From IMG/VR virus record IMGVR_UViG_3300031910_000003, positions 4,702 to 68,701 of that record: a DNA stretch of 64,000 bases. One strand, 5' to 3'. The position numbers were made by a program, and so were the translations under genes. This document shows positions 4,023 to 29,948 of the stretch, one piece after another (position 1 is the stretch's first letter; each line of letters starts with the position of its first letter). The notes beneath the pieces were generated by a model. The model searched no databases. It was given only the letters and a program-made list of their open reading frames with translations, and had not been told where the DNA came from. This DNA is from a virus (taxonomy: Duplodnaviria > Caudoviricetes).

Positions 4023-5578
4023 GCCTGGGCGCGACGAACTTTGACAGCGGCTATAAGTCGGCAAACATCCAGCTCTTGAACGCCGGCCCGTTGCTGGCGG
4101 TTTCCAATGTCACGTCGGGGCAGGCCGTCACGACGCGCAAGATCCCAGCCCAAAAAGTCTATTGGGAGATCGTGCCGGCAACGCTGGTGGTTTATCCGGT
4201 TGTCGGCTTTGACGGCACTGCCGGCAACCAGGCGACACTCAAGACCGCCTCGGCCGATTTCTCATTCACCGTGCCGAGCGGTTTCTCGGCGTGGGACTCG
4301 AGCGCCGGGACGTTTTCGACCACCAACGTCGGCGCCGGCGTCACGCTGAGCAATGGCAACAAGACTGCGGCCGCTGCTGCAGCCGGTGGCGTCGCCTACG
4401 GCTCGACCGGGCATTCCTCGGGCAAATGGTATTTCGAGATCAATGTCGACGCCCGCACCACGGCGAGCTACCACAACATGGAGATCGGGATCGGCACACC
4501 GCCGCTGACCTCGACCGACATGACCCATTCCGGCGCGAATTGCTTTGCGGAGCAGGAAGACGGGGCGATTGCCTACAACTCGGGTGTCGCGTCCAGCACC
4601 AGCAATATTGGCGTGTGGGCTGTCAACGACCGGGTCTGCGTCGCGGTCGATCTCACCGCTGGCAATTGGTGGATACGACGCAATGGCGGCAACTGGAATG
4701 GCAGCGGCACCGCCAACCCGGCGACCCCGCTGGGCCAATCGAGTGCGGCCGGCATCGTCCCGGCAACGACGATCGCCGATGCCATCGGCTTTGCCAATGT
4801 CTCGCTGAGCACCTCGAGCGGCACCTTGCTCGGTGCCGACGCCAACGCGGTGGGCTATCGCGGGTCGACCGGGGTGGTGGCGCTGAACGGCTCGACGCTC
4901 TCGACCATCCAGACGCACACCTTGGGCGATGTGGTGCAGGTCGCCGCCGACCTCGGCATGCAACTGGTGTGGTTCAACGTCAACAATGGCAACTGGAACA
5001 ACAACGCCGCGAATAGCCCCGCGTCGGGGACCGGCGGGATCTCTTTCTCAACCATGACCTGGGGCGAGCTGTTGCCTGCCGTCGGCCTATCAATCGGCGT
5101 GCAGGCGACGGGCAGGTTCACATCGGGCAGCCAATCATTCGCTGCACCAAGCGGCTTTTCGGCATTGGATAGTGCCACAGTAACGACCACTCCCGCCGAG
5201 CTGTGCTCGGCGTCGCCAACTCATGACGGGCCGGCGCGGCAGGACCCGGTGACGACCACGGCGCAACGCGATCCGTGGGCGACCGCTGCCGGCGCGTGGT
5301 ACGGGATCAGCAACAACACGCCGAACACCGCGGTCAAGATCTGGTCGTCAGCGGCGACGGCAACCCACGTCTCGGGCTTTGTCTACGAGAACGGCGTGGG
5401 CGTCAAAAAGACCGTGCGGCTCTACGACCACACCGACGGCACCTTTCTCGGTGAGACGACCAGTGCCGCCGATGGCTCCTACTCGATCCCCGCACTCGGC
5501 CGCACCAACGTGCTGGCGGTCGCGTTCGACCCGACGACCTTCAATGCCATCTGCTGGGACCAGGTAACGCCGGTCTAA
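4019..5578 (+). CDS. Tail fibre/receptor-binding protein with two SPRY-like domains
   Basis: [27 protein letters not shown] and [31 protein letters not shown] motifs; C-terminal [21 protein letters not shown] module. Confidence 0.7.
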
Positions 5579-25143: not shown

Positions 25144-25470
25144 ATGGACACCAACGGACTTAGCGAGAAGGGCGGGGGGATCAACGGTGGCCAGCTGCGC
25201 TCGTTCGTCGAGCGCTATGAGCGCCTGCAGGGCGAGATCGACGGCCTCAACGGCGACAAGGCCGATCTGATCAAAGAGGTCGAGAGCACCGGCTTCGACA
25301 AGAAGGTGTTCAGGATCGTCGTCAAGCGCCGGCGCAGGGGCAAGGACCGGTGCGACGAGGAAGACACGATGGTCGCGCTCTACGAGCAGGCGCTCGAGGA
25401 GCCGGGCGAGGAGGCACCGGAAGAGGACGCCTCGCGCGTGCACGCGCGCGAGGACGTGGCGGCCGACTGA
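25144..25470 (+). CDS. gapR: GapR/DUF2312 nucleoid-associated protein homolog
   Basis: QLRSFVERYERL..E......DK..L..E..STGFDKKV.R.VV..R......EE..MV.LY..AL. Confidence 0.85.
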   Translation: MDTNGLSEKGGGINGGQLRSFVERYERLQGEIDGLNGDKADLIKEVESTGFDKKVFRIVVKRRRRGKDRCDEEDTMVALYEQALEEPGEEAPEEDASRVHAREDVAAD

Positions 25471-25481
25471 GGGGGGCGGAG

Positions 25482-26750
25482 ATGGCGATCGTCAATCTGC
25501 GTGAGCCGAAAGGCGATGATTTCCCGCTGACCCATATCAAATTGCCGCCGCGCCGGTTGCGTCTCCTGCGCCAGGACGTCGTCGACGGTTTGGCGGAGTC
25601 GATGTCTAAGATCGGGCTGCTCCAGCCGATCTTGGCGGCCGAGGAAGACGGCCTGCTGATCGCTGGGCTGCATCGCTACGAAGCCGCCAAGAAGCTCGGT
25701 TGGCGGACGATCAGAACTGTTCTCGTCGAAGGCCGATCCGTGGACCTGATGCGGATCATGCAGATCGACGAGAACCTGGTCCGCGCCGATCTGTCACCGG
25801 CGGAGCGCGCCGCGCACCAGCATGAGCGCAAGAAGCTCTACGAGAGCGAATTTCCAGAGACGCGACAGGGCGGTGCTCCAGCGGCTCGGGGACCAGGGAG
25901 AGGGGGTAAGATCGCCAAAACGTCGGGCATACCCTCGTTTGCAGCTGATGCCGCCACCAAGACCGGGGTTAGCAGGCGCACCGTCGAACGTGACGTCGAG
26001 CGTGCTCAAAAGATCCCCGATGTCCTCAGTGTCGCCGGCACGGCGCTCGATACGCCGGACGAGCTCGACGCACTCGTCAAACTGCCCAAAGCCAAGCAAC
26101 GAGAACTGATCGGACGCGCGAAGGGCGGCCACAAGGTCAGCGCAAAGACCACGCTGAAACAGGTCAAGCGCGAGGAGCGTGAGGCCGAACTCGCCAAGCG
26201 TACCGAACTCGCGTCGCAAGCCATCGGCCGCCGACGCTATGGCGTGCTCTATGCCGACCCGCCATGGCGGTTCGAACCGTACTCGCGCGAAACCGGCCTC
26301 GATCGCGCCGCCGACAATCACTACCCGACGATGACGCTAGACGAGATCAAGCGGCTGCAGGTGCCAGCCGCCAAGGATTGCGTGCTGTTTCTTTGGGCGA
26401 CCGCACCGATGCTGTGCGAGGCGCTTGAGGTCCTCCGCGCCTGGGGGTTCGCCTACAAGAGCCATTGCATCTGGGCGAAGCCCCGCAAGGGAACCGGGTT
26501 CTGGTTCCGCAACGCGCACGAGCTACTGCTGGTCGGCACCCGAGGCAACGTCGCGGCACCAGCGCCGGGCCATCAGCCGCTTTCCGTGATTGAAGCCGCG
26601 GCCACGCGGCACAGCAAAAAACCCGAAGCCTTTGCCGAGATGATCGAGCGGCTGTTCCCGCGCACCGGCAAGCTGGAGATGTTTGCACGTCAATCGCGGC
26701 TCGGCTGGCACGCCTGGGGCAATGAAGTCGTCGAGGAGGCCGCGGAATGA
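25482..26750 (+). CDS. ParB-like domain fused to an MT-A70 N6-adenine methyltransferase
   Basis: IGLLQPI..LIAGLHRYEA (ParBc); YADPPW, LFLWAT, NAHELLLVG, HSKKPE, LEMFAR (MT-A70). Confidence 0.9.
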   Translation: MAIVNLREPKGDDFPLTHIKLPPRRLRLLRQDVVDGLAESMSKIGLLQPILAAEEDGLLIAGLHRYEAAKKLGWRTIRTVLVEGRSVDLMRIMQIDENLVRADLSPAERAAHQHERKKLYESEFPETRQGGAPAARGPGRGGKIAKTSGIPSFAADAATKTGVSRRTVERDVERAQKIPDVLSVAGTALDTPDELDALVKLPKAKQRELIGRAKGGHKVSAKTTLKQVKREEREAELAKRTELASQAIGRRRYGVLYADPPWRFEPYSRETGLDRAADNHYPTMTLDEIKRLQVPAAKDCVLFLWATAPMLCEALEVLRAWGFAYKSHCIWAKPRKGTGFWFRNAHELLLVGTRGNVAAPAPGHQPLSVIEAAATRHSKKPEAFAEMIERLFPRTGKLEMFARQSRLGWHAWGNEVVEEAAE

Positions 26751-27163
26751 GCGCCGAACACCTGCCCGGGATGGAGCCGGCGCACAAAACCAACAGCGAG
26801 CGCGCCCCACCCAGCGGCCGGCGCCTCAGCGCCGCCGATGCCTCCTTGGTCAAGGGCATGCTCAAGCGCCACGATCGGCAGCACGACATCGCCTCGTGGT
26901 TCGGCGTCAACTCCGGCCGGATCATGGATGTCAAACATGGCGAGCTGCACCCGCAGGCTCCGGTCGCACCGGCAGAGGCTTTGCCGCCGCCAGGACCGTA
27001 TTCGTCGGGGCGCGCCGCACAGGCCGCGATGTCAGCGCTTGTGCTCGCCAAGGATGCGATCGAGCGCGCCCAAGCATCAATCGACGCCGTCCGGGCCGAG
27101 ATCGATGCGGCCAAGGTCGCGATCAACTCCGCCCTCGATGAGATCCGGAACGAAAAGCTGTGA
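26747..27163 (+). CDS. HTH-like hypothetical protein
   Basis: VKGMLKRHDRQHDIASWFGVNSGRI. Confidence 0.65.
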   Translation: MSAEHLPGMEPAHKTNSERAPPSGRRLSAADASLVKGMLKRHDRQHDIASWFGVNSGRIMDVKHGELHPQAPVAPAEALPPPGPYSSGRAAQAAMSALVLAKDAIERAQASIDAVRAEIDAAKVAINSALDEIRNEKL

Positions 27164-27197
27164 GCGAGCTGATCCACATGGTGCTGCGCGGTCGCGG

Positions 27198-27644
27198 ATG
27201 AGCCGGTCGACCGCACCGCGGTTCAAACTAACGCCGCCCGTCGTCCCTGAGCAGGAACTGCACGAGACGGTGGCGTCAGCCTTCCATCTGCTGATCGCAC
27301 CGCCAGCGCAATGGGCCATGTATCCCGCCGGTGCGATCCAACTGACGCAGGCGCAAGCGACAAAATTGGTGCGCATGGGACTGAAGCGCAGCTGGCCGGA
27401 TTTCCTGGTGCTCCATGACTGGCTCTACGGCATTGAACTGAAGCGGCGCGGCGCAAAGCTGTCAAAGTCATACTGGGGCCGCACCAAGCGCGGTAGCCCG
27501 ATCTATCGCATCGGCCAAGAAGACAACTTCCCCGCGCTCATCGCCGCCGGCATGCGGGACATCGCGGTCTGCTACAGCGTCCAGGAGGCAGTCGACGCAC
27601 TCAAGCGCTGGCGCATCCCGTTGCGCGGCAGGGTCGCGGCATGA
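27198..27644 (+). CDS. VRR-NUC-like PD-(D/E)XK nuclease
   Basis: GLKRSWPDFLVL..GIELKR..K.S..Q. Confidence 0.75.
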   Translation: MSRSTAPRFKLTPPVVPEQELHETVASAFHLLIAPPAQWAMYPAGAIQLTQAQATKLVRMGLKRSWPDFLVLHDWLYGIELKRRGAKLSKSYWGRTKRGSPIYRIGQEDNFPALIAAGMRDIAVCYSVQEAVDALKRWRIPLRGRVAA

Positions 27645-27673
27645 GCCACACTTGCCACTGGCCGGGCTGCTAA
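27641..27673 (+). pseudogene. Orphaned original 5' end (MSHTCHWPGC*) of the gene at 28140
   Basis: Translates to a near-copy of MNHRCHWPGC at 28140; ATGA-coupled to the upstream gene. Confidence 0.8.
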
Positions 27674-28143
27674 TGGGCGCTCCACACATAGAGAGAAAAT
27701 GCCCTGACTGCGGTGACGTCAAGCGACTGTCTGATTTCTATAAATCGAGAGACGGATATGACGGCTACTGCAAGTCATGTCGGCGATCGAGAGACCGCGA
27801 GCGAGCAGAGCAAAAGGCTGAACGTTGGCGCAGGATCGATCCGCAGAAGCGGCGAGCTTATAAACTTCTCAGGCTCTACGGAATTACGATCGACGACTAC
27901 AACAGAATGTTGGAGGAGCAAGACTTCTCCTGCGCAATCTGTGGGGGCGTAGAGACACGAAGCATGTACGGAGAGGACCCGCGATTAGTCGTCGATCACA
28001 ACCATCGTACAGGGCAGGTCCGAGGTCTGTTGTGCTGTACTTGCAATGCAAGTCTGGCTGCAGTGGAACATGAACAATTTATGTTACTTGCCAAAGAGTA
28101 CCTGCGCAGGACGGATGGCTACCAATTTGTGGGTGATCCATGA
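27673..28143 (+). CDS. Endonuclease VII-family homing endonuclease
   Basis: YGIT..DY..ML.EQ...CAIC...LVVDHNH.TG.VRGLLC..CN; N-terminal CxxC..CxxC; visibly lower GC than the flanks. Confidence 0.9.
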   Translation: MGAPHIERKCPDCGDVKRLSDFYKSRDGYDGYCKSCRRSRDRERAEQKAERWRRIDPQKRRAYKLLRLYGITIDDYNRMLEEQDFSCAICGGVETRSMYGEDPRLVVDHNHRTGQVRGLLCCTCNASLAAVEHEQFMLLAKEYLRRTDGYQFVGDP

Positions 28144-28385
28144 ACCATAGGTGTCACTGGCCGGGGTGCCAAGTAGAGGTTCCTCCAGACAAGTTTACGT
28201 GCAGGCGCCACTGGTTTGCGCTGCCCAAGCCGATCCGGCGGGAGATCTGGCGGCACTATCGCAAAGGCCAGGAGGTCACCAAGGACCCCTCGGACGCCTA
28301 CATCCGCGCCGCCCGGCGAGCGCGCGAGTGGATCTACGCCAACCATCCGCCGCTGCAACAACTGCAGCTGGATTTTGCCCAATGA
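28140..28385 (+). CDS. Cys/His hypothetical protein with recoded 5' end
   Basis: CHWPGC..C.RHW..LP..IR. Confidence 0.75.
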   Translation: MNHRCHWPGCQVEVPPDKFTCRRHWFALPKPIRREIWRHYRKGQEVTKDPSDAYIRAARRAREWIYANHPPLQQLQLDFAQ

Positions 28386-28636
28386 CCGGTCCCGAGGTCC
28401 TTCAGCTGCCGCACGCGGGGCCGGTCACCGACGGCGATGTCTCGACCTGCGCCCAGGTCACCAAAACGCTGGCGGTCGCGTGCGTCAGCCTCTCGCTCAG
28501 ATACGGCTGGCCGACCGTGCTCGATAGCATGCTCTCGGCCTATTACTCGCTGGCACTGGAAAGGGTGGGCCCAGCGCGGCTCGCCGAAGTGCTGACCGAC
28601 CTCGCCGACGAAACGCTCAAAAGGCGCGTCCAATGA
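28382..28636 (+). CDS. Hypothetical protein
   Basis: ATGA-coupled. Confidence 0.6.
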   Translation: MTGPEVLQLPHAGPVTDGDVSTCAQVTKTLAVACVSLSLRYGWPTVLDSMLSAYYSLALERVGPARLAEVLTDLADETLKRRVQ

Positions 28637-28884
28637 AAACTGCCGAAGTCATGCCCCGCAAGGTCAAGCGCAACCGCCGCAGGCGGTCGTCGACCGATCG
28701 GGAACGACACGCCGCGGCCATGCTGCTGGCTCCGGTCGTCAGGCGGGTCGTCCTCGGTGCCAAGCTGGCTGACGTCTGGCCAAAGGCGGTCCGCGCCTGC
28801 CGCGTCTGCGGCTGCACCGACGACCGCGCTTGTCCGGGCGGGTGCTGGTGGGTCGACACTGATCTCTGCAGCAGCTGCGCGTGA
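28633..28884 (+). CDS. Hypothetical protein with C-terminal Cys cluster
   Basis: CRVCGCTDDRACPGGCWWV...LCSSC. Confidence 0.7.
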   Translation: MKTAEVMPRKVKRNRRRRSSTDRERHAAAMLLAPVVRRVVLGAKLADVWPKAVRACRVCGCTDDRACPGGCWWVDTDLCSSCA

Positions 28885-29948
28885 CGGTCAGGATCCTCGA
28901 GGGCCACGTGCTCGATGTGCTCGCCACGCTCGCGGACGAGAGCGTGCACTGTGTGGTGACCAGCCCGCCCTATTACGGGCTGCGCGACTATGACCTGCCG
29001 CCGCAGGTTTGGGGCGGTGATCCGCATTGCACGGCGTGCCAGGACATCGATGCCGGTGCCTTCTGCCGGCATTGCGGCGCCTGGCGCGGTGACCTCGGAT
29101 TGGAGCCCTCGCCCGAGCTCTACATCGAGCATCTGCTCGCGGTGTTCCGCGAAGTCTGGCGGGTGCTGCGCGCCGATGGCACGCTGTGGCTCAACATCGC
29201 CGACAGCTATTGCTCGCGCGGTAGTGCCTCGGGGGCGCTGGCGGCGACCGGGTTGCGCTCGCCGGCACGCGCCCATCTGGCGCGGCCCGAACAAGGCAAG
29301 CCGGCGATCGCGCGCAGGCGCCGCAGCTGGGGCGAGGCCAAGAACAAGGACCTCTTCCTGATTCCGCCGCGGTTGGCGCTCGAATTGCGCGCCGCAGGCT
29401 GGTACGTCCGCAAGGACAACATCGTGCACAAGCGCAACCCGATACCCGAGTCGGTCGAGGATCGCACAACCAGCGCGCACGAGTACGTCTTTCATCTGAG
29501 CAAATCGGAAACCTACTGGTACGACGCCGCGGCGATCCGCGAGCCGTTTGTCGACGACCGCATGGGCCGCGACGGCGGTCGCGGACAGAGCGAGCGCAAC
29601 CGCGGTGGCCGCACCGACGGCTTCACCAAGCCCAACAACATCGACCCTTCGACCAATGGCGGGCGCAACCGGCGCTCGGTGTGGACGATCTCGACGCGGC
29701 CGACACCCGAGGCGCATTTCGCGACGATGGCGCCACTGGTCGCCGAGATCTGCATCCTCGCCGGCTGCCCGGCCGGCGGGGTCGTGCTCGACCCATTCCT
29801 CGGCAGTGGCACCACGGCGATCGTCGCCGACCGCCTGGCGCGCGACTGCATCGGCATTGAGCTGAGTCCCGGCTATGTGGCAATGGCCGACCGGCGGGCG
29901 CGCGAGCCCGGCTTTGCGCTGCTGCTGCCAGCGGAGGCGGCAGCGTGA
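28881..29948 (+). CDS. N4-C/N6-A DNA methyltransferase (beta class)
   Basis: VTSPPY (motif IV) precedes LDPFLGSGTT (motif I). Confidence 0.92.
   Translation: MTVRILEGHVLDVLATLADESVHCVVTSPPYYGLRDYDLPPQVWGGDPHCTACQDIDAGAFCRHCGAWRGDLGLEPSPELYIEHLLAVFREVWRVLRADGTLWLNIADSYCSRGSASGALAATGLRSPARAHLARPEQGKPAIARRRRSWGEAKNKDLFLIPPRLALELRAAGWYVRKDNIVHKRNPIPESVEDRTTSAHEYVFHLSKSETYWYDAAAIREPFVDDRMGRDGGRGQSERNRGGRTDGFTKPNNIDPSTNGGRNRRSVWTISTRPTPEAHFATMAPLVAEICILAGCPAGGVVLDPFLGSGTTAIVADRLARDCIGIELSPGYVAMADRRAREPGFALLLPAEAAA

Follow-up and report, generated by a model that had tools for sequence, protein, structure and literature searches.

Introduction

How can a nuclease gene enter the coding sequence of another gene and still leave that gene whole? 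By the usual view, homing endonucleases spare the host gene only by residing in an intron, in an intein or between genes. The question is raised by a locus in a phage of the Caudoviricetes, of which we analysed a window of 64,000 nucleotides (nt), that is positions 4,702 to 68,701 of the 68.7-kb IMG/VR phage record IMGVR_UViG_3300031910_000003. Coordinates given below without a contig name are those of this window. In the window the start of a small gene, here called gene B, is present twice. The first copy is a stub of ten codons (MSHTCHWPGC) directly downstream of a gene called here gene A, the second copy (MNHRCHWPGC) is the beginning of a full-length gene B, and a nuclease gene of the Endonuclease VII type lies between them.

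An initial annotation, made from the window sequence, had described this arrangement as the work of a homing endonuclease that split a gene and supplied a recoded replacement 5' end. The elements it listed, namely the stub, the TAATG overlap, the Endonuclease VII open reading frame (ORF), the ATGA overlap and the MNHRCHWPGC copy, were all found in place. From the comparison with nuclease-free relatives, the composition of the inserted DNA and the properties of the nuclease, we consider it likely that a free-standing homing-endonuclease cassette invaded the 5' end of gene B by one-sided double-strand-break repair. One of the claims of the initial annotation, the origin of the replacement by recoding, had to be given up.

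Insertion point and origin of the two gene starts

The closest nuclease-free allele was found on the metagenome contigs L007 and L008, with 79% protein identity in gene B. On both contigs gene A was joined straight to one single gene B by an ATGA overlap, and both 30-nt copies of the window aligned to one and the same place (L007 720-750). The comparison with endonuclease-free relatives, suggested earlier as a check, thus revealed an uninterrupted A-ATGA-B arrangement and placed the insert after codon 10 of gene B. In the alignments to L007, L008 and the likewise nuclease-free L009-L014, homology was lost at 27670 and was back at 28139 or 28200. The flank of L009-L011 and L013-L014 was 98-99% identical to the window up to 27649 (95% in L012). 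The nuclease was absent in all of these contigs and present in the window, L040-L044 and L048, referred to in the following as carriers.

The stub had 28/30 nt in common with the B start of L007 and 27/30 nt with that of L013, and its sequence equals the family consensus N-terminus MxHTCHWPGC. The new copy matched the B start of L007 at 23/30 nt, and the stub and the new copy of the window matched each other at 24/30 nt. Because the stub is closer to the nuclease-free L007 than the new copy is, it is the native (resident) start of gene B, in agreement with the earlier proposal.

It could be argued that the two CHWPGC stretches have nothing to do with each other, being a chance repeat or parts of independent genes, or that they were brought together in a chimeric assembly. 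Apart from the shortness of the stub we found no point in favour of this explanation, which we regard as hardly credible. The local alignment score of the 34-nt direct repeat formed by the two copies (27/34 identical, 499 nt apart in the repeat search) was reached by 0/500 shuffles, and the stub adjoins gene A in the very same way as the true B start does in L007 and L008. The initial annotation had named two independent CHWPGC genes in relatives as the observation that would speak against a split gene; these were not seen, as L007 and L008 carry a single gene B. With respect to a chimera, the carrier structure was base-for-base identical across many soil assemblies (L040-L044, L048), and in four soil runs contigs spanned the stub, the nuclease and gene B without differences. 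An assembly artefact is excluded by the number of independent sequencing runs and soil assemblies that show this same structure. The stretch was contained in 24 soil runs, with no RNA run listed among them, and gene B was listed in 178 blocks of the index.

In one of the soil runs, X2, a contig broke off precisely with the final base of the stub (27670), the next contig started at 27641, and the depth was higher just to the left. A variant that shares the 30-mer of the stub and continues differently, possibly the nuclease-free allele, may coexist in this run. A scan of IMG/VR with the gene A protein and with two exact junction patterns gave no further viral contigs.

Composition of the insert and of the hybrid gene B

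The GC content was 0.46-0.60 from 27670 to about 28200 and 0.62-0.73 in the flanks. The GC content at third codon positions (GC3) was 0.55 in the nuclease ORF compared with 0.79 in gene A (p = 1e-5), and the neighbouring genes had values of 0.73-0.85. Within gene B, GC3 was 0.64 for codons 1-22, 0.50 for codons 11-22 and 0.83 for codons 23-81 (Fisher test, p 0.02 for codons 11-22). The identity between the B genes of the window and of L007 followed a similar course, with 0.77 for nt 1-30, 0.44 for nt 31-66 and 0.88 for nt 67-243. By these values the tract 27671-28205 is foreign DNA from a lower-GC source, with a crossover to the resident sequence near codon 22/23. Codons 1-22 of gene B, judged by the same data, are a foreign, divergent allele joined in frame to native-like codons 23-81.

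The AT-rich replacement of about 20 codons described in the initial annotation was thus recovered in the composition, with low GC3 over codons 1-22 and the higher value thereafter. The description of the differences as synonymous did not stand. Residues 2, 4, 11, 15 and 17-20 of the window protein differ from the nuclease-free alleles, altogether approx. 8 amino-acid changes in 22 codons. Such a number does not fit a synonymous recoding made by the element; it points to a diverged allele of foreign origin.

Every invariant residue of the family (H3, C5, H6, P8, C10, W25 and others) is retained in the hybrid gene B, and its product is therefore probably functional. Gene B belongs to phrog_18063, a family of unknown function, and no Pfam family was matched. 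The AlphaFold model of the protein was a confident one, with a predicted local distance difference test (pLDDT) value of 86.8, and a Foldseek search with this model gave no PDB match at E <= 0.001. Members of the B family (28140-28385 in the window, L124-L172) are small proteins that are widespread in proteobacterial genomes and prophages. Their invariant H3, C5, H6, P8 and C10 and the almost invariant C21 and H24 together resemble a zinc site. We inspected 49 B-family loci in bacterial genomes, mostly of Alpha-, Beta- and Gammaproteobacteria, and none (0/49) carried the nuclease or a second CHWPGC motif. We concluded that the occupancy of gene B by a nuclease is rare and confined to the present clade.

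The nuclease

The product of the middle ORF matched Pfam family PF02945 (Endonuclease_7) over residues 65-145 with an E-value of 1e-17 and 64.3 bits (cut-off 23.6), and phrog_2633, annotated as 'endonuclease VII', with an E-value of 3e-32. The closest solved relative was the restriction enzyme Hpy99I (PDB 3fc3), aligned over residues 15-146 (E 2.4e-7). As judged from this alignment, the nuclease is related over nearly its full length to a sequence-specific enzyme, and not only to the core of the T4 resolvase.

In an alignment of 13 sequences C87/C90, D108-H109-N110-H111, R117 and C121/C124-N125 were invariant. The F-CphI family of homing endonucleases with the Endonuclease VII motif is described by the pattern CX2-4C..DHxH..R..CX2C-N (PMC6083498), which the nuclease carries in full. 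The motif lies in the C-terminal half of the protein (residues 65-145; total length 156) and is preceded by a CxxC...CxxC region at the N-terminus. A position in the C-terminal half is a trait of the 'endonuclease clade', unlike the resolvase clade (PMC6083498). The 12 homologues, 52-65% identical, start with MG (most of them with MGAPHIEK) at the same ATG, P0032 having two extra residues before it, and for this reason ATG 27673 was taken as the start of the nuclease. Homologues of approx. 60-65% identity were found in unrelated contexts, for example beside a helix-turn-helix gene or an integrase gene, and there the nuclease start likewise overlapped the stop codon of the upstream gene, as TGATG. 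The middle ORF most likely encodes a free-standing homing endonuclease of the Endonuclease VII motif type, as far as its sequence features allow the assignment.

Some nucleases with this motif are encoded in introns (PMC6083498), and excision of 27671-28169 would be in frame. The 499-nt insert could accordingly be imagined as a group I intron, or as a segment removed by other processing, by which the stub is joined to codon 11 of gene B. We regard such a removal as very improbable. An Rfam scan of 27000-29000 gave no intron family even at E = 1, only two unrelated weak matches, and with 471 of the 499 nt taken up by the ORF a ribozyme core would find no space. Moreover, the downstream copy has its own ATG overlapping the nuclease stop and encodes a complete protein of 81 amino acids (aa) like its relatives. 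The arrangement without an intron, as initially annotated, was thus upheld, and the nuclease ORF does not lie in an intein either. The nuclease is sporadic, low in GC, free-standing and in possession of its own frame and start.

A related case in a second phage

Metagenome contigs were scanned with the nuclease alignment, which resulted in 76 loci. Among these (tblastn) a B gene was found beside the nuclease only in the window type and in L049, a related soil phage. The L049 nuclease (L049:1470-2231) is 59% identical to that of the window and lies between a homologue of gene A (78% protein identity) and a gene of the B family (65% identity), and its stop overlaps the ATG of gene B as ATGA.

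The junctions of L049 are unlike those of the window. The upstream leftover consists of three codons, ATG-ACG-CAC, followed by 23 nt. The nuclease has a C-terminal tail of 10 residues, possibly a copy of the gene A end that has diverged, a weak similarity whose score was reached by 12/500 shuffles. The 5' part of the L049 gene B was also low in GC3 (0.66 over codons 1-35 versus 0.85). At the third positions of codons 9, 12, 14 and 16, which surround the insertion point of the window, the two carrier alleles, that of the window and that of L049, have bases other than those of the two nuclease-free alleles. Related nucleases at one gene with different junctions would fit a lineage that targets the start of gene B. 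Alternatively, the window and L049 may go back to a single ancient insertion that was later reshaped.

Homing or passive acquisition

The carrier structure was found in three mosaic backgrounds, two of which change close to the nuclease. Between the window and L043 we counted 79 differences in 27237-27620, followed by 0 in 27621-29500. L042 was 99.9% identical to the window over 25640-28787, whereas the nuclease-free L010 differed from L042 at 109 positions in 28140-28714 and thereafter at only 1 in approx. 2,500 bp. Breakpoints so near to the nuclease are suggestive, being what co-conversion would leave. The comparison of L042 with L010 was also considered as a conversion patch with two ends. 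This was rejected, as the left flanks are approx. 99% alike and one crossover at 28715-28787 suffices.

To the right of 28787, downstream of an 83-aa gene, phages that otherwise are nearly identical carry different modules, namely a methyltransferase and the genes following it in the window and genes of 59, 118, 98, 78 and 143 aa in L042 and L010. The crossover of this swap lies within a conserved stretch of 70 bp.

The serious rival among the explanations considered is a passive mosaic acquisition, in which the nuclease gene and the foreign B start came in like other accessory phage genes, through recombination at a gene boundary that was illegitimate or relied on short homology, and the nuclease took no part. 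The nuclease may then be inactive, or it may be of other use to the phage, for example in defence, as a helper in packaging or as a resolvase. Two observations lend some weight to this explanation. The breakpoints of L042 and L043 each fit one crossover, and in L009-L014 the same A/B junction is occupied by an unrelated, terminator-bearing insert of approx. 128 bp. The latter (L010:184-312, matching window position 27644) contains a 13-bp GC-rich hairpin followed by T8, resembling an intrinsic terminator, and has an 11-nt stretch of the junction on both sides as a direct repeat (GCGGCATGAGC / GCGGGATGAGC). Among the retrieved sequences this insert had no homologue.

On the other side, the catalytic and zinc motif of the nuclease is complete and invariant across its family, and the likeness to a sequence-specific nuclease extends over the full length, beyond the T4 resolvase core. 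The nuclease is absent from near-identical relatives and hence has no essential function. A nuclease of 59% identity at the same gene in another phage would rarely be expected by chance acquisition. None of the other retrieved nuclease-homologue loci, besides the window type and L049, adjoins a B gene or has one nearby, and the three for which the gene context was inspected lie among unrelated genes. Taken together, we judge passive acquisition to be unlikely, with a small share of probability that has to be taken into account.

Several points weigh against an entry by homing, the explanation that we prefer. One ordinary crossover is enough to account for each nearby breakpoint. In addition, L042 has window-type bases at both left-flank differences from L010, so a two-ended conversion tract is not supported there. 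Because a different 128-bp insert occupies the same place, the A/B junction may be a hotspot for insertions in general, with no part played by the nuclease. The GC3 contrast within gene B is only marginal when all 22 codons are included (Fisher test, p = 0.08). The 5' part is the most variable region of the B family anyway, and part of the divergence of the B start is thus to be expected without selection for immunity. Finally, no homologue carrying the window residues 15-20, as the donor start should, was found among the retrieved B homologues, and as no donor with the foreign B start was found the first entry is only reconstructed.

Locus features and neighbouring genes

The coordinates of the features discussed here are collected in Table 1. 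Gene A had a weak match to phrog_824. The nuclease is flanked by two DNA methyltransferase genes, at 25350-26750 and 28881-29948. According to the Pfam labels in the gene tables of identical public contigs, the upstream one is a fusion of ParB_N and MT-A70 and the downstream one is an N6_N4_Mtase.

Table 1. Features of the gene A/gene B locus and breakpoints of related contigs, in window coordinates.
Feature	Position	Strand	Description or basis
Gene A	27198..27644	+	148 aa; ORF list; gene call of the same length on the public contigs L040 and L041
Stub, native start of gene B	27641..27673	+	MSHTCHWPGC (10 codons), TAA at 27671-27673
Nuclease gene	27673..28143	+	156 aa; Endonuclease-VII-motif type (HNH superfamily), free-standing
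Hybrid gene B	28140..28385	+	81 aa, starts MNHRCHWPGC; phrog_18063
Foreign replacement 5' end of gene B	28140..28205	+	22 codons; GC3 and identity to L007
Low-GC foreign tract (stop/start overlap, nuclease gene and foreign B start)	27671..28205	.	Composition and alignments
Direct repeat, left copy	27640..27673	.	34 nt; repeat search
Direct repeat, right copy	28139..28172	.	34 nt; repeat search
Left breakpoint, L043	27620..27621	.	50 bp left of the nuclease
Crossover interval, L042	28715..28787	.	Window type to the left, L010 background to the right; approx. 570 bp right of the nuclease

Proposed mechanism

For the first entry of the cassette we infer the following course from the compared sequences. 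A donor phage would have had the nuclease just upstream of its own gene B, and the nuclease would have cut a nuclease-free gene B near codons 10-22; this cleavage specificity of the nuclease is likewise something that we infer. The right end of the break could have been repaired by homology within gene B, with the crossover near codon 22/23. On the left end no homology to the donor would have been available, and an illegitimate joining at codon 10 would have duplicated the start of the gene. Later spread could have taken place by ordinary homing between related phages, with gene A and the stub serving as homology on the left and the body of gene B on the right.

After the entry the carriers would no longer contain an uninterrupted target, since the stub lacks the right half and the new copy differs. 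Across codons 5-16 the new copy differs at 12/36 nt, and immunity of the carrier to re-cleavage is plausible from these differences. A lower GC content of the donor would produce the same differences in the new copy as the idea of immunity predicts.

Three stop/start overlaps connect the four reading frames. The stop of gene A and the ATG of the stub form an ATGA overlap (27641-27644), the TAA of the stub shares its last A with the nuclease ATG at 27673, and the TGA of the nuclease overlaps the ATG of gene B at 28140, again as ATGA. In a scan for promoters and terminators none was found on the + strand between gene A and gene B. These overlaps and the result of the scan suggest a chain of termination and reinitiation along gene A, the stub, the nuclease and gene B, by which both the nuclease and gene B could be made.

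A more far-reaching interpretation, which we put forward tentatively, is that the nuclease lineage is specialised for gene starts. Its cassette would then consist of a stop/start overlap, the nuclease, a second stop/start overlap and a substitute gene start. Perhaps, and we hold this to be possible rather than probable, such a cassette enters a coupled operon, obtains a low expression of its own from the ribosomes of the interrupted gene, passes these ribosomes on to the repaired gene and destroys its own target.

Significance

Understood as a homing event, the locus would show a third route in phage, the entry into a coding sequence with a substitute for the displaced part. It would also be an example of how, in populations of soil phages, such elements give rise to chimeric genes and to horizontal transfer on a local scale. 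The natural nuclease-free and nuclease-bearing alleles form a testable pair for mapping the target of an uncharacterised nuclease of the Endonuclease VII type. For annotation the locus holds a warning, as short stub ORFs and hybrid gene ends beside nuclease genes can be scars of an invasion and not real genes. Should the chain of stop/start overlaps work as outlined above, it would represent a compact case of a selfish gene taking over translational coupling. Should the nuclease be a gene-start specialist, cassettes with a replacement gene end would be a general, so far undescribed route for phage homing endonucleases into coding sequence without an intron or intein.

Comparison with known systems

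Free-standing endonucleases of T4-type phages include SegF, SegG and MobE; mobE splits nrdA in phage Aeh1, and mobA is found at gene 60 (PMC2988022). The window shares with the Seg and Mob systems of T4 a free-standing nuclease gene that is sporadic among related phages. Co-conversion of foreign flanks is a feature of the T4 systems, and in the window a foreign tract of 66 nt in gene B adjoins the nuclease. As in T4 mobE, where the overlap is UAAUGA, the start of the nuclease overlaps the upstream stop codon; for mobE this overlap has been discussed as a means of keeping the nuclease level low (PMC2988022). For T4 intron homing, experiments have demonstrated one-sided illegitimate break repair with junctions at microhomology (Parker et al. 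1999, as reported in PMC2988022), and the insertion within a coding region also has a T4-type precedent. However, T4-type insertions are intergenic or split a gene into two polypeptides, whereas in the window a duplicated, substituted start keeps the gene whole. The nuclease also belongs to another family.

With respect to the nuclease itself, the CX2C, DH(N)H, R and CX2C-N motif and its place in the C-terminal half are as in the F-CphI or 'DHHRN' family (PMC6083498), and the similarity over residues 15-146 connects it with Hpy99I (PDB 3fc3). In the open-access literature we found no description of a duplicated and replaced gene start in a phage.

The closest analogue, by the organisation of the sequences, is found in fungal mitochondria. 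There mobile endonuclease ORFs (mORFs) create hybrid genes, as in atp6 of Allomyces macrogynus and in atp6, atp9, cox2 and nad3 of Glomus sp. (PMC3630166). The fungal mORF carries a foreign C-terminus of the target gene, and the native C-terminus is left behind as a remnant (PMC3630166; also PMC7487136 and PMC6279837). Both the fungal elements and that of the window combine an endonuclease ORF with a foreign end of the target gene, attached in frame to the resident body, and in both the displaced resident end persists alongside and resembles the relatives more than the inserted copy does. The differences are equally clear. In the window the 5' end is concerned instead of the 3' end, as in a mirror image, and the host is a phage of soil bacteria and not a mitochondrion. 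The nuclease is of the Endonuclease VII motif type, while those of the fungal mORFs are LAGLIDADG or GIY-YIG enzymes, and in place of in-frame fusions the window has separate ORFs connected by stop/start overlaps. We concluded that the element in the window works like an mORF element and is not a member of that group.

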